Source of the DNA: Trueperaceae bacterium
GTDB lineage: Bacteria; Deinococcota; Deinococci; Deinococcales; Trueperaceae
NCBI GenBank assembly: GCA_965213925.1
Contig: OZ243927.1
Location: 3,200,001-3,264,000 of the forward strand
Direction of reading: 5' to 3'
Length of the DNA stretch: 64,000 nucleotides
Below the pieces are notes generated by a model. The model did no database searches and had not been told where the DNA came from. It saw only the letters and a list, made by a program, of their open reading frames with translations. The position numbers and the translations under genes are program-made. Positions 13,376 through 37,329 of this stretch are shown here, piece after piece; within the stretch, counting starts at the first letter, position 1; each line of letters begins with the position of its first letter.

Positions 13376-14258
13376 ACCCCAATTCGGAAAAGGGAAATTC
13401 AAAGCTCAAATGCCCCTAAACGGCTGAGTTGGTAAGCGAGCAAGGTGGTGTAAACGTGCAGGATGCAGCCCACCGTCGAGCGGTAGGGTCTGTCAGAGAG
13501 TCCAAGTCTATCCAAGGACGAGAAGACCGACTCAACGATGCGGTGTCCTTGGTAAAGCCTCTGCTCACGCTTGGGCGGGGGTAGCTGGTTGCTGCGGCGC
13601 GGGGTTATAAGGTCAACCGCTTGGGAGGCAACGTCGGCTTTAAGCTCGGAGCTGATATAGCCTTTATCGGCGGTTACAATGGCGTAAGTGAGTTTGTCTA
13701 GTAGGCGAGGCGCGACCTTAACATCATGTTCGTTCGCGCCTCGCAGCAGTACCTCACAGAGTCTGCCTGTATCGTCCACACGCGCATGAAGCCGAAAGCC
13801 ATAGAAGGTGGTGTTATGGACGTGGTCACGCCCATAACTGCCCGCAAGCTTGGTCCTTTTAGCACGGGCAAAATCTACTACTTCTAGTTTCTTCGAGTCG
13901 AGGTGCTGTTTCGTCGTGTTATGCCCGGTGCAAAGCTGTTTAACCGCGAGAATAATCTGTCCTATCAGGAGGCGCTTACGCTCACAAAACGTTGAGGGTA
14001 CAGGTACGTCCACGCCGAACGATGCAGCAACTTCAAGCATCTTCCGGCTATAGCGAAAACTCGACAGCTTCTGATAGACCGCTAAGGCGATGATGAACGA
14101 GTCTGGAAAAACAGGAGCACGTCCTTGAGGGGCTTTTCTACGCTTCTTGAGGGGTAAACGTTCGACGGCTTGTATAATCTCTTCGAGGGTTGGGATTTTG
14201 CGCATACATCATTGCAACCCTCACTTCTCCCGCTGTCAAATCTTTTCCGAATTGGCGT
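13376..14258 (-). mobile_element. IS982-family insertion sequence
   Basis: 17-bp IRs ACCCCAATTCGGAAAAG / CTTTTCCGAATTGGCGT (1 mismatch); flanks GAACTA / GAACTT. Confidence 0.85.
13399..14205 (-). CDS. IS982-family DDE transposase
   Basis: LDSK, FYGFRLH, ANEHD, ADKGY, RIVESVFS. Confidence 0.85.
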   Translation of the reverse strand: MRKIPTLEEIIQAVERLPLKKRRKAPQGRAPVFPDSFIIALAVYQKLSSFRYSRKMLEVAASFGVDVPVPSTFCERKRLLIGQIILAVKQLCTGHNTTKQHLDSKKLEVVDFARAKRTKLAGSYGRDHVHNTTFYGFRLHARVDDTGRLCEVLLRGANEHDVKVAPRLLDKLTYAIVTADKGYISSELKADVASQAVDLITPRRSNQLPPPKREQRLYQGHRIVESVFSSLDRLGLSDRPYRSTVGCILHVYTTLLAYQLSRLGAFEL

Positions 14259-19680: not shown

Positions 19681-20650
19681 TCATCTGGTTGCTAGCCGAG
19701 GGCAAGTCTCAGCAAGAGGTTGTTGCGCTCACGGCATATAACCGCACGAGCGTCTATGACGCCGTGAAGCGCTATAACGCCGAAGGGCTGCGTGGTTTAC
19801 GAGACAGACGACACGAAAATCCCGGTTGTCCGCCGCTCATCAGCGAAGCGGAGCGTGTGGGGCTGCTGGAAGCTACGCAAGCAGAGGATGGGGGCGTGTG
19901 GAGTGCCGAGCGGATTCGGGATTGGGTCAAGGCGCAACTTGGCAAAGAGGTCTACACACAGCGGGCTTACGAACTACTTGATCAACTCGGGTTTAGCGTG
20001 CAAAGCCCTCGCCCACGACATACAAAAGCAGATCGCGAGGCGCAGGACACGTTCAAAAAAAACGTCTTACCTGAGCGCGTAGCGCCCGCCCGCCGCAACT
20101 CCCAAGAGGTCGAGCTGTGGGCAATGGACGAGCACCGGGTTGGGCTCAAACCGATCTTGCGCAAAGTGTGGGCTCCTAAGGGGCAGCGTCCCATTGCACG
20201 AGTACAATATCGCTTCGAGTGGCTTTACCTCTGGGCGTTCGTCAACCCGCAAAGTGGGCAGTGCATCTGGTACATCTTGCCCACTGTGAGCACCCTAGCG
20301 TACAGCCGCGTTTTGCAGAACTTCGCCCGCTCTGTAGGTGCATCTCCGGATAAGCGCGTCCTGCTTTTGCAAGACCAGGCAGGGTGGCATACCTCCAGCA
20401 AGCTCGAGGTCCCTCCCGGTATCAACCTCATTGACCTACCACCTTATTCACCAGAACTTCAACCCGCTGAGAAGTTATGGCGGCTTACCGATGAACCTCT
20501 CGCTAATACATGCTTTGACGACCTTGATGCGCGACAAAACACCCTTGATCAACGTTGCGAGTTTCTTCTGAGCCAGCCTGACCTCATCTCACAAGAAACC
20601 CTCTTCCACTGGTAGCCCCTAACATGATAGAGATTTAATCGGAATCCGTA
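19680..20650 (+). mobile_element. IS630-family element, 5'-truncated, transposase 19689-20615
   Basis: Begins mid-HTH (VIWLLAEGKS); DEHR, QDQAGWH, PYSPELQPAE; sequence ends GGAATCCGTA. Confidence 0.85.
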
Positions 20651-28578: not shown

Positions 28579-29106
28579 TTGAACGGTAGAGTTCGGTGAC
28601 TAACCAAGTCCCAGCCACGCTCGTCGTTTTGGCTGCCCCTACGCCTGTGATCGTCAAGCTTAGGCGTGTGCATAGATCGCTGCACAGACGAGAACAGATT
28701 GTTCGTGGCTCCCAACTCAGAAGCGTTGGAAGACAACCCTAACGAACGCACTCCCACGGCGATCGAAGCGATGGCGGCGTAGACGTAAAGGTGAGCTTAG
28801 CGTCCGCTCTCCTGGACCAAATTTCGGCAATCTTCTCGAACCTCTCTAAGGTTAACGCGCGCAACTGCCGCAGAATGGTTCGTCCATTAAAAAGCGCTCA
28901 CGGTAGGGAGGGCGGCGACGCCAAACTTACGCGGCGTGCGGTGGCGTCTTCTTCTGCCCCAAACGTAAGGGTGCTTGTGGTCATTCCAGTAGGCAGTGGC
29001 TCTTCGAATGGGCTCAACCATCTCGGTCCAGACCTCGAAGCGCCTGCCTTTGAGAGCTAAAGAGCGTAACGTCTTCCACCAGGGCTCGGTGAGGTTGAGA
29101 TACCCC

Positions 29107-29170
29107 TAGGTGATCGCCGCTAGGCGAATCCGGTCCTGTGCCCTGCGAAGCGGGTATTGTCGGTAACCTA
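29107..29170. mobile_element. 64-nt hairpin micro-insert B in transposase (frameshifting)
   Basis: Removal restores QPKYAGYLNLTEPWWK; core AGGTGATCGC...CGGTAACCT. Confidence 0.8.
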
Positions 29171-29639
29171 GCGTACTTGGGCTGGAAGACGAACTCCCAC
29201 CTGGGGTGAGCCAGACTAAAAAGGAGCACGTCGTAAGAGCTGTGCATGTAGAGATTGTCGATGATGGCGTAGATGTGCTTGACCTCGGGCGGGACCCACT
29301 GCTCGACCTTTCCCAGAAACTCGGTATAGTGCCCGCCGATGCGGCGCGGGACCATCTCAGTGAATACTGCGCCTGAGGCGGGTTCTAATGCGCCGAAGAC
29401 GAAACCACCTTTCGGGCGATGTGTATAGTCAAGCGCGACTTTCGCGCGTCCGGCGGGGGGTCCACGAATTTTGGTCAGCTCCTTACCTTCATATGTTCTT
29501 GAGGCGAGCGGTCCCATCTCGTCTATGCAGAGGACGACGTTGTTCTCTGGTGGGTCGGTGTAGAGCTGTAGGGTGGCACCCTTTTTTCAGCGAACTCGGG
29601 GTCCACCTTTTGTCCATACCACCCTCCTTGTTGTCGCCA

Positions 29640-29705
29640 AAGGTTACCGCCAACGGCGGCTAGCGGGAGCGGGACCACGCGACTTCGCTTTACGCGATCA
29701 CCTGT
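29640..29705. mobile_element. 66-nt hairpin micro-insert A in transposase (in frame)
   Basis: Removal restores EGLRWRQQ; same terminal sequences as insert B, opposite orientation. Confidence 0.8.
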
Positions 29706-30471
29706 CCTGAGCCCCTCGTTCCTGAAGATTTCGCTCATGCGACTGCGCCCCATCATGATGCCTTCCTCTTCGCTGAGATACGCTACCAGCCTATCTAAGG
29801 TCCAAGAGCCGAAAGGTAGTCCTAGCTCATCAGGTTTCGTTAAAGCCGTTTGAATAACAGTGCCGACATGCTCGCTTTTGTAGATGTGAGGTCGCCCGTG
29901 ACGCGGGCTTTCTTCTAAACCAGGAATACCCAGCTTCGTGAAGCGGTTCACCCACTTGCGCACCGTCTGGTGGTGTAGCTCGAGCTTCTCGGCAACCTCG
30001 TGCACTGACAGCCCTAAGTTCGACTGCAAGACAATCCGCGCCCGACGCACTTTGCTCACACCCATCGTCCTCGAACGTTCCCACCTTTTAAGTTCTTGAT
30101 ACTCTTCTTCGGTTAGCCGACGAACACGGGCATACGGGCGCACGGCTCACCTCCACTAGAATTGAGAACTCTAGCTTAGTCCTGAGTCGAATTAACTGGA
30201 TGAGCCAATAAGGAACGCGCGCAACTGTTACCTTAGCCTTGTACTAACCTCTCCCCCGTTCACCCCGCCAAACTGGTCTTATCTAAGGATTGGAAAAATT
30301 CCGGGTGCTAAGCTCTCTGGTGGTGAGCAACATTCAAAAGCGATATCTCAAGATGTTGTGCATCATGTTTTCCAGAACTGCCACCACGTAGGCGCTCGCC
30401 CTTCAGTTCTTCGTTTCTTCTCGTTCTACACGCGGAGTTGGGCATTCATCCCGTCGCCGTGAGGTCCATTA

Positions 30472-30729
30472 TCATTCTATCTGCTCGAGATGCTCGAGCG
30501 CCGCGTCGTCCTCGCCTGCACGCCACAACCCAAACGCTATGCGAATTGTTACAACGTTGGCTTCGTAGGTTACAAGGTCAGCTTCGAAAAATTGCACGTC
30601 GTCTGTGTCCAAGTTTTCAGCAATGTGCTGGTAGGTGGCAGCCAACTCTTCTAGGTGTCCTTTAAGACTCAGACCTACCTCTTGGTGTTCTGTAAGCTTG
30701 CTCTCCACGATTTCCTCCGAAATATCCAC
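30472..30729 (-). CDS. Hypothetical acidic helical protein
   Basis: 85-aa ORF with protein-like composition; no recognised motif. Confidence 0.55.
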   Translation of the reverse strand: MDISEEIVESKLTEHQEVGLSLKGHLEELAATYQHIAENLDTDDVQFFEADLVTYEANVVTIRIAFGLWRAGEDDAALEHLEQIE

Positions 30730-30904
30730 CAGGGCAGCGCTCGCTTAGGTGAGCGAGCGCTCGCCAACTCCTTATTTCTTTCGTTTTGCGCGCGAAGTTG
30801 GTCGCCCACTTGGGCAACGGCACGTAGCGCCACCTCGAGCGAAGCTGCGCGCTGTCGCGGCTGCAAACCGCACGAGAACGGACCATCGCCGGCTGCAACA
30901 AAGC

Positions 30905-31186
30905 TTACGAGCGATTGGCTTGAACGGTGAAGTTTAACTTCATCATAAAGTGCAAGAAGAGCTGCTTATCCAAGCGGTAGTGCGCTACAGCGTCCTCTGT
31001 TTCGTAAGTGTGCTCAAGTTCTCGCATTAGCTCCGTCAGTTCCTCACGTAGCGGGTCAGCCTTTTCGTCGGGTAACTGGGCAAGGACGGCGAGGGCGTAG
31101 TCACGGTTTTTAAGCGATTGCTGATGGAGCCGCTCGAGGGGGGCGGGCGGTTGCTCTAGCCGATCGAAGACGCTAGCTGAGTCCAT
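30905..31186 (-). CDS. Hypothetical protein
   Basis: 93-aa ORF with TAAACT box 6 nt before ATG. Confidence 0.65.
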   Translation of the reverse strand: MDSASVFDRLEQPPAPLERLHQQSLKNRDYALAVLAQLPDEKADPLREELTELMRELEHTYETEDAVAHYRLDKQLFLHFMMKLNFTVQANRS

Positions 31187-31353
31187 GCTGTGAGTTTAGC
31201 AGCTTTAGGATTAGCTACTCCTTGACATCCTCGTTCAGAAGCGGCACTAATTTTCGTCAGGATTGTTGCCGTACCTCTTTTATCAACGACGTGATGGCAA
31301 GGTTTAATGCGACGAACGCGCGCATCTTACCACAACAGGTCAGCACTCCCAGT

Positions 31354-31818
31354 TCACTTGAATAGCCGAGGATCAAAAGCGTGATCCAACACTGCCGCCA
31401 CCTCGACATTGTTTGCATCGGGGTGCTCCGGATTGAGTAGGTAATTCGCCTCACGCAGGCTCACGCTGCTCGGGACCCTGAGCAGCGCAGAGCTTCGGGC
31501 GTCAACCCACTGCTGCCCAATCTCTTTCGTACTTGCTGGGTGTGGGAAGGCGTTCCAATCCTCAGGTAGGTCTTCAGTGCGCAACTCACGGACAAGTGAG
31601 CTGTCAAACCGAATTTCGGCGAGCGCATACTTCGGGAGCGTCTCGGTGTCTTGGAGGTGGACGAGCACCTCTAAGGTGGCAAGCGCAATCGTCTCTGCTA
31701 AGTAGATGAGGGGGACGCCCTGGTAGTTCCAGCGTCCCCCTACCCGCCGCGCACCCTCGCCGCTGAGCGACTGATCCCGATACTTGGATTTGAGGATGCG
31801 CCAAGCAGATAATCTCAA
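31354..31818 (-). CDS. RES-domain toxin (ParT/MbcT-like)
   Basis: SGEGARRVGGRWN, ATLEVLVH, LRVPS, NYLLNPEHPD. Confidence 0.93.
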   Translation of the reverse strand: MRLSAWRILKSKYRDQSLSGEGARRVGGRWNYQGVPLIYLAETIALATLEVLVHLQDTETLPKYALAEIRFDSSLVRELRTEDLPEDWNAFPHPASTKEIGQQWVDARSSALLRVPSSVSLREANYLLNPEHPDANNVEVAAVLDHAFDPRLFK

Positions 31819-32285
31819 CCAAGCACTCCGTACTCCAGCCTCTCAATCACATCGAGCACTTCCCGCGCGCCTTGCTCGCTCCTCGCAAAGTCGAGCGGCG
31901 CGCGGCCTCCCAGCGCAAGAGCCGGTTTAGCTAACCATGCCTTCGCTTTCGCCTCATCTTCGAAGAGATAGGCTGCTTTCTCAAACACCTCCGCGTAGCG
32001 GTAAAGCCGTTCGCTCTCCTCGGCCCTAAATCGTCCCTCAGCGAAGCGTCGATGTAGAGTGGCCTCTGACAAACCAAGGTAGCTTGCTAACGATTTTTGG
32101 GAGACACCCAGGAGGGACTGAAGCCGACCGAAGGTGTCAGCCGGTAAGCCCTGCTCGAGCCGCTCGAGCAGCTCGCCCGTAGTATTGACACTTAAGCCCA
32201 AACCAGTTCCGTACCGGTTTGAGCCCTGCTCTCCGGGTACGAAGGGTGTAAACATCATATCTGCCACCTCAACCACCTCTTTCAT
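31815..32285 (-). CDS. Xre/MbcA/ParS antitoxin
   Basis: HTH, EESERLYR, WL..P..ALGG..PLD, RLEYG; 4-nt overlap with toxin. Confidence 0.93.
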   Translation of the reverse strand: MKEVVEVADMMFTPFVPGEQGSNRYGTGLGLSVNTTGELLERLEQGLPADTFGRLQSLLGVSQKSLASYLGLSEATLHRRFAEGRFRAEESERLYRYAEVFEKAAYLFEDEAKAKAWLAKPALALGGRAPLDFARSEQGAREVLDVIERLEYGVLG

Positions 32286-32338
32286 ATGACAAGTATATCA
32301 CTTTCGTATGAGGGTAGGGTGCGCACTTCTTCCCAACT

Positions 32339-33229
32339 TTATTGCGGAAAGTGCCGTCTATAGAGCATCTGCCGCGACTCCCCGGAGAGGTTGACGTAGA
32401 GCTGCGTAGTTGTGGGCGAGGCATGATCAAGAATCGACTGCACGGCAGCGATAGGCGCGCCTTGGTTTAAGAGCAGCGTGGCTAGCGTATGGCGCAGCAC
32501 GTGCGGCGTCACTTTCTCCTCTAAACCGCACCGCTTTGCTACGCGCTTGAAGATGCGCTGTATCTGCGAGGTGCTGAGACGTTGATGCTCCAAAGTCCCG
32601 CTATGCTGACGTCTCCGTCGCTTCGTAGCGAACAGGGCGAGGCAGTTGTCTGAACGGCTGTCCAGATATCGTTTAAGCCACAGCGCCGCTTTCGCCCCGA
32701 AGTACACTTCTCGCTCTTTGTTGCCCTTACCTAGCACAACGACGCTCCGGCGTGACCAGTCGAGGTCGATTCTGTCAAGTTGATGTATCTCGCTGACTCT
32801 GCAACCCGTGGCGAAGAAAAACTCGATAAGGGCGTGCTCCAATAGATTCTCACAGGCGTCTCTGAGCAACTCGATCTCTTCTACCGAAAGCGCTTTCGGG
32901 ATTCGTGCGGGTAGGCGCGGTTCTCGGAGTTTCAGCGCGGGGTTGCGCTCCAATATCTCCTCTTCATAGAGCCACTTGAAAAAGATTTTGAGGGCGCGGA
33001 CTTTGTTCGCTAAACTCGACGTTTGCAGATGTGTCAAGCTTGTGAGGTGAGCGCGCAGGTGCTCAAGCTTTACTGTCTCAACAGGGGTTTCGCCTCCAGC
33101 ATCCAACATCAAGCGCTTCAGATGCAGCTTGTACGAGTAGAGCGTCCTGTCGCTGTAACCGTCCAACTTCCTGGCTTTCAAATATGCCTGAATACAACTC
33201 GCTAAAGTGAGAACTTTTTGCTCGTCCAT
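32339..33229 (-). CDS. Tyrosine recombinase (XerD-like architecture)
   Basis: RBS GGAGG before MDEQK; TGCRVSE, GKGNKER, HVLRH, LDH, TQLY. Confidence 0.92.
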   Translation of the reverse strand: MDEQKVLTLASCIQAYLKARKLDGYSDRTLYSYKLHLKRLMLDAGGETPVETVKLEHLRAHLTSLTHLQTSSLANKVRALKIFFKWLYEEEILERNPALKLREPRLPARIPKALSVEEIELLRDACENLLEHALIEFFFATGCRVSEIHQLDRIDLDWSRRSVVVLGKGNKEREVYFGAKAALWLKRYLDSRSDNCLALFATKRRRRQHSGTLEHQRLSTSQIQRIFKRVAKRCGLEEKVTPHVLRHTLATLLLNQGAPIAAVQSILDHASPTTTQLYVNLSGESRQMLYRRHFPQ

Positions 33230-33407
33230 AAAAAACCTCCGAGCCGTAGTCTGCACGGAGGTTGACGTCAGCATGTTTTCGAGGGGTGATAGCAATGCGC
33301 CAGACGCGCGCGTTAATTGCACAATAGATCATCTTACAAGTTCGTCACAAAACCTTTTCTACTATTCAGTGCTGGCAACATAAAAAGCTGCTCTCCAAAT
33401 GTACGCG

Positions 33408-33430
33408 GAATTAACTGGATAGACCAACAA
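33408..33430. repeat. Solo IS630 end
   Basis: GAATTAACTGGATAGACCAACAA vs IS end GAATTAACTGGATGAGCCAATAA. Confidence 0.7.
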
Positions 33431-33652
33431 ATGTCCGGCCTCGAACCGCTGAAGTGAGCAAATAGCCCTTATGTAAACCTTCTCCTTTTTCCACCAGTTT
33501 TCTATAGAAGACACCAAAAACTTGTCAGCACGGCGACACCTTCGTTTGTGTCGCGAGGGCCGGCACAGCGTTCGCCTACAGTTTGCCGAAGGCGGCGTGC
33601 AGCGTTTTGACCAGCTTTTATCTCTACACCCAAGCCGACCCGACGCGCCAAG

Positions 33653-35824
33653 CTAAGGCGCTAGGCGCTTCTCTCGCAACCTAAGCACCGTTTCGACCTC
33701 CGGCTCCGCTGCGGCATCCCGAGCGAGCCGAACGCGGTAGTCGCCCTCAGCTACAGTCCAGCCGGGGGTATCCGGGTCGTAGGACGCCATCACGCGCAGC
33801 TCGTCGCAGATGATGCGCACCGTTGCCGACTGACCCGGCTCGAGCGCAACGCGCGCCCAGCCCGCGAGACGGAAGGTTGGCTCGTTCGCCCCAGCTGGCT
33901 CTACGGATGGCGGCGCGACGTACACCTGCGGTGTGTCGATGCCCGAATGCTTGCCCGCGTTGCTCACCGTCAGCGACGCCTCGATCAGCCCGTCGCCATT
34001 CACCGCAACGGTGACATTGCTGTAGTCAAAGTGCGTGTAGGATAGACCGAACCCGAATGGAAACCTCGCCGGTCGCCCCTCACGCGCGTGCCAACGGTAG
34101 CCGATATCCACGCCCTCGATGTCGTAGTCGACACCGACATAGTCGCCCTGGCGCGGCTGACCCGGGAAGGACGTTGTGTTTTCAGGAGAGCGCATCTCCG
34201 GGCGCGGCAGGTCTGCCTCACTGATCGGGAAGCTGACCGGCAGCCGACCCGAAGGCGTGACCTCTCCCGACAGCACATCAGCGACCGCCTGCGCCCCCGC
34301 AGTGCCGCCATACCACGCGGCTAGCACCGCTGACACGTCGTCCAACCAGGGCATTACCACTGCTCCAGGCGTTTCCAGAACCACCACCGTGCGAGGCACC
34401 CTCGCCGCTACCCCAGCGACCAAGTCATCTTGAGTTCCGTCCAAAGCGAGATCGGGGGCGTCCCAGCCTTCGGTAGCCCACTTCTCAGCGAGGACGACGG
34501 CGACGTCGTCCTCGCGCAGCGCCGTCAGGTCGTCGCCCAGGAACACGACTTCATTCTCGCTGAAGCGTTCTTTTATTGTATTGAGTGGTGAAGGTCCGTG
34601 GTAGATGCGCGGGAACTCCATCTGCGGAACGCGCATCCCCTCTCTCTTGGTGTGTTCGGGCGGCGTCACCGCCGAGCTTCCGCCACCCGAAAGCACTCCG
34701 AGGTCGGCATTCTTGCCGAGCACGGCGATACGTCCTTGCGGCGGGTTCAGCGGCAGGATACCGTCGTTTTTTAGCAGCACAAGCGACTGCTCAGCGACCC
34801 TCTGTGCGACCTCCAGGTGGCGTGGCAGCGGGGCGGGGCTCTGCAGCCGACGGCCCTCTAGCGCGCCGACGGAGTGCAGCGCAGCGAGGATGCGCGTCAC
34901 CATATCGTCCAGCCGCGCCTCGCTGACCCTACCCTCGGTCACCGCGCGCTTCAGCGGCTCGCCGAAAAAGTGCGCCGTGTCCAGGTCCCAACCCGACTGC
35001 CGGTCTAATCCGGCCCACGCTGCATGATCGGTTGAATGGGTCGCGCCCCAGTCCGACATGACGAAGCCCTTGAACTGCCAGTCGCCCTTGAGAACCGTAG
35101 TGAGCAGGAAATGACTTTCTGACGCGTAGACCTTGTTGACCATATTGTAGCCAGTCATGATCGAGCGCGGCTGACCGTGTTCGGTGGCGATTTGGAACGA
35201 GAGCAGGTCGGACTCGCGCAGCGCCTTTTCGCTGATGTCCGAGCTGACCATCACTCGTCCGGTCTCCTCGGGGTTGATGGCGAAGTGCTTGAGCGTCGAG
35301 AGTACCCCCTGCGACTGGATGCCTGCGACGGACGCCCCCGTGAGCAACCCGGTATGTAGCGGGTCCTCGCCCACATATTCAAAGATGCGCCCGCCGCGCG
35401 GCTCGCGGATTAGGTTCATGCCTCCGGCAAGCTGGACGGCAAAGCCCAGGTGCCGCGACTGAGCGCCGACAGCCTCGCCCACCGCGTGCGCTGCGTCACG
35501 GCAGAAGGTCGCGCCGAGGGCGATCAGCGAGGGGAAAGCGGTGACGTCCTCTTGACCACGGACGTTGTTGGGGTTGGTGACCCCCATGCTGGCGTCGCTC
35601 TCGTCCCACATGGGGATGCCTAAGCGAGGCACGCCGGGCGTGGCTGCAGCCGAGCCGTGCGCGCCTTCCGGCGCTCCATCCGCCGCCATCGGAGCCGACG
35701 CGAGCGCGACCTTTTCGTCCAGGGTCATCTGGGCGACCAGCGCTTTGGCTGCCGACCAGTCGTCCTGCCAGCCAGCCCACGGTCCGGATTCGGTGTGGAA
35801 ACGACAGGTTATCTCTGTAGTCAT
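33653..35824 (-). CDS. GH3 beta-glucosidase with Fn3-like C-terminus
   Basis: LKHFAIN, FVMSDWG, SLVLLKND, FPFGFGLSYT. Confidence 0.93.
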   Translation of the reverse strand: MTTEITCRFHTESGPWAGWQDDWSAAKALVAQMTLDEKVALASAPMAADGAPEGAHGSAAATPGVPRLGIPMWDESDASMGVTNPNNVRGQEDVTAFPSLIALGATFCRDAAHAVGEAVGAQSRHLGFAVQLAGGMNLIREPRGGRIFEYVGEDPLHTGLLTGASVAGIQSQGVLSTLKHFAINPEETGRVMVSSDISEKALRESDLLSFQIATEHGQPRSIMTGYNMVNKVYASESHFLLTTVLKGDWQFKGFVMSDWGATHSTDHAAWAGLDRQSGWDLDTAHFFGEPLKRAVTEGRVSEARLDDMVTRILAALHSVGALEGRRLQSPAPLPRHLEVAQRVAEQSLVLLKNDGILPLNPPQGRIAVLGKNADLGVLSGGGSSAVTPPEHTKREGMRVPQMEFPRIYHGPSPLNTIKERFSENEVVFLGDDLTALREDDVAVVLAEKWATEGWDAPDLALDGTQDDLVAGVAARVPRTVVVLETPGAVVMPWLDDVSAVLAAWYGGTAGAQAVADVLSGEVTPSGRLPVSFPISEADLPRPEMRSPENTTSFPGQPRQGDYVGVDYDIEGVDIGYRWHAREGRPARFPFGFGLSYTHFDYSNVTVAVNGDGLIEASLTVSNAGKHSGIDTPQVYVAPPSVEPAGANEPTFRLAGWARVALEPGQSATVRIICDELRVMASYDPDTPGWTVAEGDYRVRLARDAAAEPEVETVLRLREKRLAP

Positions 35825-35961
35825 TATCTCCCCCGTTTCTCTTGCCACCTGATTCTAAAGGAGCACGGGTATAGAGCACCTATGCCGGTCATACAGGTAA
35901 CCTAGATAGGGGAAGGATCGGCACGCCGTCTGACCGTTTCGCAATCGGATGAGACCATTGT

Positions 35962-37297
35962 TGGTTCGTCCATTAAAAAGCGCTCACGGTAGGGAGGGCG
36001 GCGACGCCAAACTTACGCGGCGTGCGGTGGCGTCTTCTTCTGCCCCAAACGTAAGGGTGCTTGTGGTCATTCCAGTAGGCAGTGGCTCTTCGAATGGGCT
36101 CAACCATCTCGGTCCAGACCTCGAAGCGCCTGCCTTTGAGAGCTAAAGAGCGTAACGTCTTCCACCAGGGCTCGGTGAGGTTGAGATACCCCTAGGTGAT
36201 CGCCGCTAGGCGAATCCGGTCCTGTGCCCTGCGAAGCGGGTATTGTCGGTAACCTAGCGTACTTGGGCTGGAAGACGAACTCCCACCTGGGGTGAGCCAG
36301 ACTAAAAAGGAGCACGTCGTAAGAGCTGTGCATGTAGAGATTGTCGATGATGGCGTAGATGTGCTTGACCTCGGGCGGGACCCACTGCTCGACCTTTCCC
36401 AGAAACTCGGTATAGTGCCCGCCGATGCGGCGCGGGACCATCTCAGTGAATACTGCGCCTGAGGCGGGTTCTAATGCGCCGAAGACGAAACCACCTTTCG
36501 GGCGATGTGTATAGTCAAGCGCGACTTTCGCGCGTCCGGCGGGGGGTCCACGAATTTTGGTCAGCTCCTTACCTTCATATGTTCTTGAGGCGAGCGGTCC
36601 CATCTCGTCTATGCAGAGGACGACGTTGTTCTCTGGTGGGTCGGTGTAGAGCTGTAGGGTGGCACCCTTTTTTCAGCGAACTCGGGGTCCACCTTTTGTC
36701 CATACCACCCTCCTTGTTGTCGCCAAAGGTTACCGCCAACGGCGGCTAGCGGGAGCGGGACCACGCGACTTCGCTTTACGCGATCACCTGTCCTGAGCCC
36801 CTCGTTCCTGAAGATTTCGCTCATGCGACTGCGCCCCATCATGATGCCTTCCTCTTCGCTGAGATACGCTACCAGCCTATCTAAGGTCCAAGAGCCGAAA
36901 GGTAGTCCTAGCTCATCAGGTTTCGTTAAAGCCGTTTGAATAACAGTGCCGACATGCTCGCTTTTGTAGATGTGAGGTCGCCCGTGACGCGGGCTTTCTT
37001 CTAAACCAGGAATACCCAGCTTCGTGAAGCGGTTCACCCACTTGCGCACCGTCTGGTGGTGTAGCTCGAGCTTCTCGGCAACCTCGTGCACTGACAGCCC
37101 TAAGTTCGACTGCAAGACAATCCGCGCCCGACGCACTTTGCTCACACCCATCGTCCTCGAACGTTCCCACCTTTTAAGTTCTTGATACTCTTCTTCGGTT
37201 AGCCGACGAACACGGGCATACGGGCGCACGGCTCACCTCCACTAGAATTGAGAACTCTAGCTTAGTCCTGAGTCGAATTAACTGGATGAGCCAATAA
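35962..37297 (-). mobile_element. IS630-family element copy 2 (inserts at 36193-36256 and 36726-36791)
   Basis: Offset 7086 from copy 1; identical ORF translations. Confidence 0.92.
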
Positions 37298-37329
37298 CTG
37301 TTTGCGTTGAGCGGTGCCCTAAGGCGCGC

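Follow-up and report, generated by a model that had tools for sequence, protein, structure and literature searches.

Related inserts of about 63 nucleotides at two conserved positions in the transposase genes of a duplicated IS630-family insertion sequence from a Trueperaceae bacterium

We analyzed a 64,000-nucleotide stretch of a Trueperaceae genome (contig OZ243927.1; "the window" refers to this whole stretch) that carries two copies of an insertion sequence (IS) of the IS630 family. In each copy the transposase gene is interrupted by two short inserts, here called A and B. Both had been described in an earlier account based on the DNA letters (the original prediction), and three-frame translation placed them exactly where it had put them in the first IS copy, at 29640-29705 (A) and 29107-29170 (B). 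Their claimed recurrence at 36193-36256 and 36726-36791 was likewise borne out, by a pattern made from their ends that matched at all four loci. The count of two interruptions was incomplete: a third frame change, at a run of six A residues (29582-29587), had been overlooked, and it is normal for a subgroup of the IS630 family. The features of the locus are as follows:

28876-30211, minus strand: IS630-family IS copy 1, 1,336 bp, delimited by the exact limits of its identity with copy 2 and assigned with Pfam
35962-37297, minus strand: IS copy 2, the same as copy 1, both inserts included
28873-28875 and 30213-30215: GAA repeats beside the ends of copy 1, the right one offset by one differing base
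35959-35961 and 37299-37301: TGT repeats beside the ends of copy 2, the right one offset in the same way
29523-30143, minus strand: orfA, 206 amino acids (aa) including the 22-aa insert A (relatives about 184 aa); the helix-turn-helix (HTH) DNA-binding part
29582-29587, minus strand: run of six A (GAAAAAAG) at the overlap of orfA and orfB, with the -1 frame change from one to the other
29171-29586, minus strand: orfB part 1, the DDE domain with LCIDEMGP and IIDNL, up to ...FQPKYA
28887-29105, minus strand: orfB part 2, GYLNLTEPWW... to the stop at 28887, in another frame owing to insert B
29640-29705, minus strand: insert A of copy 1, 66 nt, in frame, peptide TGDRVKRSRVVPLPLAAVGGNL
29641-29703: core of insert A as bounded by inverted repeats, AGGTGATCGC...GCGGTAACCT on the transposase strand
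29107-29170, plus strand: insert B of copy 1, 64 nt (3n+1)
29108-29169: core of insert B, AGGTGATCGC...TCGGTAACCT on the plus strand, inverted relative to A
29103-29106, minus strand: run of four G where insert B ends on its 3' side, followed by GTA
36726-36791, minus strand: insert A of copy 2
36193-36256, plus strand: insert B of copy 2

The two IS copies are 100% identical at an offset of 7,086 nt. Identity breaks exactly at both ends (TGGTTCGTCCATTAA... and ...CTGGATGAGCCAATAA), and the flanks are unrelated. Duplication of a TA at the target site is the norm in the IS630 family. No TA duplication was found at the flanks of either copy, which is unusual for IS630; the ends are accompanied by 3-nt direct repeats, GAA...(G)GAA at copy 1 and TGT...(C)TGT at copy 2. 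As expected of a member of this family, the transposase combines an HTH N-terminus (HTH_32, HTH_23 and HTH_29, all above their Pfam cut-offs) with a DDE_3-type catalytic domain. DDE_3 (PF13358), which relatives of the transposase carry, scored weakly in the window's protein (19.9 bits against a cut-off of 28.6) because insert B splits the domain. A plasmid relative from Isosphaeraceae (L012) is annotated "IS630 family transposase". A search of the plasmid collection with the whole IS gave eight matches, all weak and partial.

The transposase is read from two open reading frames (ORFs) joined by a -1 frameshift, the arrangement of an IS630 subgroup. In three-frame translation, orfA starts at 30143 with MRPYARV... 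and runs to ...NEGLR, then through insert A and on into WRQQGGWYGQKVDPEFAEK. Past the A6 run, the -1 frame reads KGATLQLYTDPPENNVVLCIDEMGP...IIDNLYMHS...FQPKYA and then enters the 64 nt of insert B. From what is known of IS630/Tc1-mariner enzymes, we take the catalytic residues to be the two aspartates in LCIDEMGP and IIDNL and, as the third, the glutamate of NL(T/I)EPWW. Insert B throws the last 72 codons, including the glutamate of NLTEPWW, out of frame. The frame change at the A6 run, on the other hand, is probably programmed frameshifting or transcriptional slippage rather than a mutation. Among the 120 relatives of orfA in the matches listed, most are 180-184 aa long, and 12 of the 16 aligned orfA sequences end, a short way past DPEFAEK(K/R), in the same out-of-frame tail (...SSSA or similar). 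Since the position of the orfA stop is kept in relatives, the -1 shift is a trait of the IS630 subgroup and not damage. Part of PMC5009743 names IS630 among the families in which frameshifting or transcriptional realignment fuses a DNA-binding upstream product to the catalytic domain.

Insert A adds 22 residues between EGLR and WRQQ, keeps the frame and contains no stop; it is delimited as CTCAGG^(AC + 63-nt core + T)^TGGCGA. For insert B the simplest boundary would be TACGC^(TA + 60 nt + TA)^GGGGTAT, and a cut at this point, after TACGC, also agrees with the protein of a second carrier, P0164. Read in a common orientation, both inserts open with AGGTGATCGC and close with (G/T)CGGTAACCT, the second terminus reading AGGTTACCGM inward. 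The 10-nt terminal inverted repeats are imperfect, AGGTGATCGC agreeing with AGGTTACCGC at 8 of 10 positions in A and with AGGTTACCGA at 7 of 10 in B. Positions 5 and 7 are mismatched in A and B alike, which makes the two ends distinguishable and gives the element a polarity.

A global alignment of A with B has 47 identical columns out of 66 and a score of 45, compared to -7 +/- 7 for shuffled sequences (maximum 18 among 2,000). The similarity is nearly all terminal, and the interior alone gave p ~0.06. The pattern AGGTKAYCG...CGRTMACCT has four matches in the 64 kb, namely A and B in each IS copy, where 0.00 are expected (100 shuffles). On sequence grounds, A and B belong to a single family of tiny non-coding elements. 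Each has a short hairpin after its first terminus (TCGC-GTAAA-GCGA in A and TCGCC-GCTA-GGCGA in B) and a second hairpin near its other end, the two hairpins within one element being unalike. RNA folding of the inserts was no better than that of shuffled sequences (z -0.25 to -0.96), and their DNA folds behaved likewise. A scan of the IS against Rfam returned no family at the gathering score or at E up to 5. No terminator- or promoter-like site was found at the inserts, and no stimulatory structure stood out. The original prediction was correct about the kinship of A and B, their inversion relative to each other and the lack of a fitting target duplication. Its conserved hairpin (TCGC/GCGA in A, TCGCC/GGCGA in B) is present, but does not fold better than shuffled sequence, and such ordinary folding energies do not support the description of the element as "structured".

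The alignment with uninterrupted IS630 homologues that had been proposed as a check showed the inserts to be absent there, 64 and 66 nt being the lengths lacking. EGLR and WRQQ are contiguous in 12 of 16 aligned orfA sequences, and the other four contain the insert. Similarly, KYA(G/A)YLNL is contiguous in 8 of 11 orfB homologues; of the remaining three, one has insert B, one is frameshifted upstream without B and one ends at the site. In two plasmid relatives, L011 from Microvirga and L012, the alignment offsets on the two sides of site B differ by exactly 64 nt, and in L012 the difference across site A is exactly 66 nt. Without the insert, site B of L011 has the sequence ...TTCCAGCCCAAGTACGC|GGCTTATCTCAACCT.... 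Judged by these alignments, A and B are true insertions without a counterpart in the uninterrupted homologues. Both sites lie in invariant alignment columns (E143-R146, W169-Q172) that are among the most conserved of the protein. Upstream of site B 17 nt, and downstream of it 11 nt, are identical even in the Microvirga plasmid relative, and the DNA flanks of site A are poorly conserved (GAGGGGCTCAGG compared to GAGGGCCTCCGC).

Several simple models of integration were considered and rejected. B is flanked on either side by TA/CTAGG, the spacing being 62, and removal at this spacing does not restore the frame. A TA duplication, as in MITEs (transposable elements of miniature size with inverted repeats) of the Tc1/IS630 type, predicts insertions of 62 nt (B) and 63 nt (A), but the relatives are without 64 and 66 nt, and the model was rejected in this form. 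A shared target motif or a guide logic of the IS200/IS605 type was rejected as well; the flanks of A and B differ in either orientation, and a loose GCG(T)AC is unconvincing. Complementarity or identity between insert interiors and flanks amounted to 6-mers only, at chance level.

The inserts are not confined to the two IS copies, another outcome by which the original prediction stood to be judged. Insert A is also present in P0002 (a 14-aa form), P0003 (19 of 22 residues identical) and P0018 (21 of 22 identical), and insert B in P0164, with seven extra residues in the middle of the insert. P0018 is 66% identical to the window's OrfA, and the sequences on either side of its insert (EIFRREGLR and WRQQESWFDKRV) are unlike those in the window. 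The B peptide of P0164 matches that of the window at 20 of 21 residues outside the seven-residue block, compared to 71% identity over the 66 upstream residues. Over the same 66 residues, P0164 is 92% identical to the insert-less P0133, and the window's protein (P0121) is 91% identical to the insert-less P0123. P0004, which has no insert, is 92% identical to the window's orfA product. The length variants (the 14-aa form in P0002 and the additional 7 aa in P0164) hold the termini and vary the interior, as expected of elements that are recognized by their ends.

We placed the carriers on two trees. The orfA tree had 59 rows with the insert masked (one of the first 60 matches was dropped for length), and the orfB tree used the 48 of 55 proteins that have the anchoring motif. 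In the orfA tree, a starred clade (100/98) unites P0018 with P0019, P0021, P0016 and P0020, none of which has the insert. The window's protein (P0001), P0002 and P0003 fall in a separate starred clade with the insert-less P0004 and P0035. The starred branches force at least two changes for insert A, and none of 200 bootstrap trees permits one. In the orfB tree the window's P0121 pairs with P0123 (99/91) and P0164 groups with the insert-less P0133 and P0132 (99/92), so that two changes are forced for insert B also. These forced changes, together with an insert identity above that of the host genes, argue for horizontal, site-specific spread or for precise loss. As the trees stand, the inserts are a derived feature that arose long after their hosts had diverged, and the same nucleotide position has been reached, or precisely vacated, more than once. 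This recurrence, in further IS630 lineages and at the same two positions, fits the claim that the element targets a transposase.

Other small insertions were seen in these genes. P0242 and P0253, which are more distant IS630 relatives (47% identity), have unrelated small frameshifting insertions a few codons at most from site B, after FQPK and WEMVF, and P0003 has an extra insertion of eight residues directly after WRQQ. Micro-insertion may have a general hot spot in this part of the transposase gene.

What the inserts do to the IS differs between A and B. In an AlphaFold model (mean pLDDT 61), insert A lies in an unstructured stretch (residues 148-170, pLDDT <50) directly after the helix 133-143. 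The model suggests an in-frame addition to a low-confidence linker past the last helix of the DNA-binding domain. Insert A is stop-free in all four carriers, and OrfA is therefore probably still made. Insert B, in contrast, has a length of 3n+1 in both of its carriers and cuts off the glutamate of NL(T/I)EPWW from both catalytic aspartates. As written, the IS is predicted to be incapable of producing a complete transposase. The proposal that the inserts disarm the transposase thus applies to B, which takes the third catalytic residue out of frame, and not to A, which is in frame and free of stops. Because that residue is out of frame and an identical second copy nevertheless exists, mobilization in trans, recoding or excision is needed, as the original prediction had reasoned. 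The identity of the copies, their different flanks and the 3-nt repeats at their ends point to transposition of the IS after it had gained both inserts. The simplest account would be that the IS was mobilized in trans. Close uninterrupted relatives (P0004 and P0123) occur in other samples, which makes a suitable trans-acting transposase plausible.

Our preferred explanation, tentative and a little short of probable, is that A and B are ultra-short MITE-like elements (core of ~62-63 nt) that parasitize IS630 transposase genes at two fixed, conserved sites. They would be two subtypes of one non-coding, MITE-like family with imperfect 10-nt terminal inverted repeats, integrating without target duplication into two highly conserved stretches of these genes. 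Site A, where the DNA-binding domain ends, would be the junction between the codons of ..EGLR and WRQQ.., and site B the position after TACGC of ..PKYA, six codons upstream of the catalytic glutamate. The elements would pass between diverged IS630 lineages by means of an enzyme supplied in trans. With insert A, a flexible linker would gain 22 residues and OrfA would stay readable; with insert B, the IS would yield OrfA and a truncated OrfAB, and no full DDE transposase. The interrupted IS, its ends intact, would then have been copied to a second site by the transposase of an uninterrupted relative. Transposition as the mode of spread, the target specificity and the trans-mobilization of the IS are what we infer.

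A number of results weigh against this explanation. A sequence-only covariance model detected only the four known copies in the window (next match E 0.24), and no copy outside IS630 genes or in a non-coding context was seen in the scans of the window, the plasmids and the species representatives. When 185,579 species-representative genomes were scanned for the exact pattern, 10 matches came up; we consider them unrelated chance matches, since they have neither the internal GGTCC block nor any other feature in common with A or B. The plasmid collection gave no match to the inserts by blastn at E up to 1 and none by tblastn to the A peptide; the B peptide found only chance-level matches in MFS transporter genes (E 8-10). 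Among proteins, a search restricted to the region of insert A found it in three of seven candidates (the window's own, P0018 and P0003), none outside this IS630 group. A search of the representative library with the B-carrying ORF found P0164 as the only further carrier among the 150 matches listed, and a 5-mer scan of all fetched proteins in six frames found no further carrier. No candidate transposase or autonomous element with these ends was found in the window; there, the transposase gene at 19689-20612 belongs to a different IS630 lineage and no clear terminal repeats were found for it, and the 17-nt repeats around the transposase gene at 13402-14205 are unrelated to the termini of the inserts. 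No target duplication fits 66 nt for A or 64 nt for B, and sites A and B share no clear target motif, the nearest thing to one being a loose GCG(T)AC on the 3' side of where the inserts sit. The nodes within the clade of P0001-P0004 lack strong support. Finally, the family is known from two DNA sequences and four translated relatives, the other carriers being known here as proteins alone, without insert boundaries or flanking DNA.

It could be speculated that each insert had a single accidental origin and spread as a passenger among co-resident IS630 copies, by short-patch recombination or gene conversion via the conserved flanks. Recombination would guarantee the identical position that is seen in every carrier, and it would be helped at site B by flanks that are the same over 17 + 11 nt even in a distant relative. 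It also agrees with the failure of the window, plasmid and species-representative scans to turn up copies outside IS630 genes, and it calls for neither a target duplication nor a partner transposase. However, residues of P0018 differ from those of the window five codons upstream and five to six codons downstream of insert A, which would limit the conversion tract to less than ~100 nt with just 12-15 nt of flank, and this at a site whose flanks are poorly conserved in DNA. Moreover, gene conversion leaves unexplained that the two sites hold related elements, which have their inverted termini in common and lie in opposite orientations. We regard this explanation as unlikely; if it did apply, the exchange between IS copies that are 66-71% identical in protein would be unusually precise. 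Another possibility is that the IS is autonomous, insert B being read through and a +1 shift at its 3' junction (CUA GGG GUA) giving a full transposase with a 21-residue loop, with the inserts throttling synthesis. B is stop-free in the incoming frame, as it is in its second carrier, where it is likewise 3n+1; the shift needed is exactly +1 at GGG|G; and GTA is the rarest valine codon (5.9 per 1,000 across 16 long ORFs from the window). In other respects the IS is intact, in two identical copies, and its family already uses one recoding step. On the other hand, the GGGG junction is not conserved (..DHLW.. in P0164 corresponds to CTN TGG, with no run of G), and by our estimate a stop-free stretch of 21-22 codons would arise about once in three times by chance at this composition. 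With no outstanding stimulatory structure, and with a 21-residue insertion six residues before the catalytic glutamate that may be ill tolerated, such recoding seems very unlikely.

Less likely still is that the inserts are removed before or during expression, by precise DNA excision in some cells or by removal or bypass at the level of the RNA or ribosome. Recurrence at identical conserved positions in diverged hosts is a hallmark of homing introns and inteins, the lack of a target duplication would allow excision without a scar, and the insert-less P0004 and P0035, nested among carriers in the orfA tree at unstarred nodes, possibly represent precise loss. Against this, the IS has no Rfam match at E up to 5, 62-66 nt is far below the size of any self-splicing intron and the folding of the inserts is unremarkable. 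Insert B has no matched take-off and landing codons and no stop after the take-off codon, and the sole same-tRNA pair, TAC...TAT, would skip 70 nt and lose three conserved residues. The last alternative is pseudogene decay, in which a dead IS would have received two insertions by chance, unrelated to each other, and its second copy would come from a segmental duplication or an assembly artifact. The transposase is indeed unreadable end to end as it stands. This explanation is scarcely credible: A and B share termini far above chance, copy identity stops at the ends of the IS with unrelated flanks beyond and 3-nt repeats at the ends of each copy, and the same inserts occupy the same sites in other genomes, a recurrence that excludes chance decay.

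Literature searches found no description of micro-inserts in IS630 transposase genes. We set the inserts beside known systems. Prokaryotic MITEs include those mobilized by transposases of the IS630/Tc1-mariner type, such as RUP, Correia and ERIC-type elements. Like them, A and B are short and non-coding, have terminal inverted repeats, are presumed to be mobilized in trans and can sit in ORFs. Part of PMC10969869 gives a size range of 50-500 bp for MITEs and mentions intragenic, in-frame ones. With cores of 62-63 nt and inserts of 64 and 66 nt, A and B fall at the very bottom of that range; unlike typical MITEs they have no target-site duplication and no matching autonomous IS was found. MITEs are scattered in intergenic DNA, whereas A and B were seen in only one gene family at two fixed positions. 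A genome usually holds many dispersed copies of a MITE; in the 64 kb of the window there are four copies of the inserts, all inside the two IS copies. Insert A behaves like the palindromic elements of Rickettsia, and insert B, being out of frame, does not; the Rickettsia elements are ~150 bp long and occur in many unrelated genes, compared to ~63 nt at the same site of one gene family here. With homing introns and inteins the inserts share a patchy distribution, the same point of insertion in conserved sites of diverged homologues and an element better conserved than its host gene. However, they have no ribozyme, endonuclease or splicing domain and show no sign of removal from RNA or protein, and 22 residues or 64 nt are too small for self-splicing or protein splicing.

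Bypass elements are another class of small coding-sequence insert. These translational bypass elements, found in phage T4 gene 60 and as byp in Magnusiomyces mitochondria, are short (27-55 nt) mobile inserts that spare gene function; PMC5009743 mentions them, and part of 10.1101/2022.08.31.505936 describes the gap of T4 gene 60 as part of a mobile element. Insert B differs from them in lacking matched take-off and landing codons and a stop after take-off: no matched pair restores ..KYA|GYLNL.., and TAG precedes the landing frame as a codon. Insert A needs no bypass. Elements of the IS1111/IS4321 type insert in the terminal repeats of Tn21-family transposons. As proposed for A and B, their favored target is a conserved sequence of another mobile element, but they are autonomous, ~1.3 kb long and encode their own transposase, and A and B sit in transposase coding sequence instead of terminal repeats. 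The palindrome-associated elements derived from IS200/IS605, and REP/REPIN sequences, resemble the inserts in small size, in the lack of a target duplication and in short hairpins near both ends, and they are capable of scarless excision. A and B, in contrast, have no conserved 4-5-nt target by one end, their two hairpins are unlike and they are not long hairpins overall. No Y1-type transposase family was found in Pfam scans of 53 ORF translations from the window.

It is possible, though doubtful, that A and B represent a new class of mobile DNA: hyperparasites of ~60 nt that home, without duplication, to two invariant coding motifs of IS630, jump between lineages and genomes and, in the B subtype, act as a brake on the IS. 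The A subtype would then be tolerated in the DNA-binding protein and the B subtype would decapitate the catalytic domain. In frameshifting IS families the OrfA-type DNA-binding product can serve as a regulator. An IS turned non-autonomous yet still making OrfA would be, on balance, a natural brake on its family. If homing is real, no smaller site-specific mobile DNA would be known from bacteria, and one selfish element would here parasitize and partly silence another. It would open a search for an enzyme that reads the 10-nt ends and a specific coding target, and would provide a natural system for studying how insertion sequences are held in check. In annotation, such IS copies are labeled as broken or hypothetical ORFs and the micro-inserts are overlooked.

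The 5.7 kb between the two IS copies (30212-35961) include genes for a RES-domain toxin with an antitoxin of the Xre/MbcA/ParS type (31354-32285), a tyrosine recombinase (32339-33322) and a GH3 beta-glucosidase (33653-35848). GC content is lower (0.49-0.58) up to ~33.5 kb in this region. No duplication was found around the whole IS-to-IS unit, which does not establish a composite transposon. Elsewhere in the window, 19689-20612 is a single-ORF transposase gene of the IS630 family (LPPYSPELQPAEKLW motif) with stop codons upstream of it, and 13402-14205 is a DDE_Tnp_1 transposase gene between 17-nt inverted repeats at 13376-13392 and 14242-14258.

A 14-nt direct repeat, AACGCGCGCAACTG, lies on both sides of IS copy 1 (28854-28867 and 30214-30227). 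These repeats are bracketed by inverted outer ends, CTAAGGTTAAC and GTTACCTTAG (28846-28875 and 30212-30236), that resemble the insert termini CTAGGTTACC. A related 21-nt motif occurs in inverted orientation at 33296-33316, at the start of the integrase ORF. Either a recombinase site or a third small element may be represented here. As a third member of the insert family it was rejected: its termini are alike, but the covariance model does not detect it. The DNA to the left of copy 2 was considered as an IS right end and rejected also, its score of -1 compared to -10 +/- 6 for shuffled sequences not being significant. A solitary match to the right end of the IS at 33409-33427 (3 mismatches in 19, with 0.00 expected by chance) is probably the leftover end of a related IS630 element.

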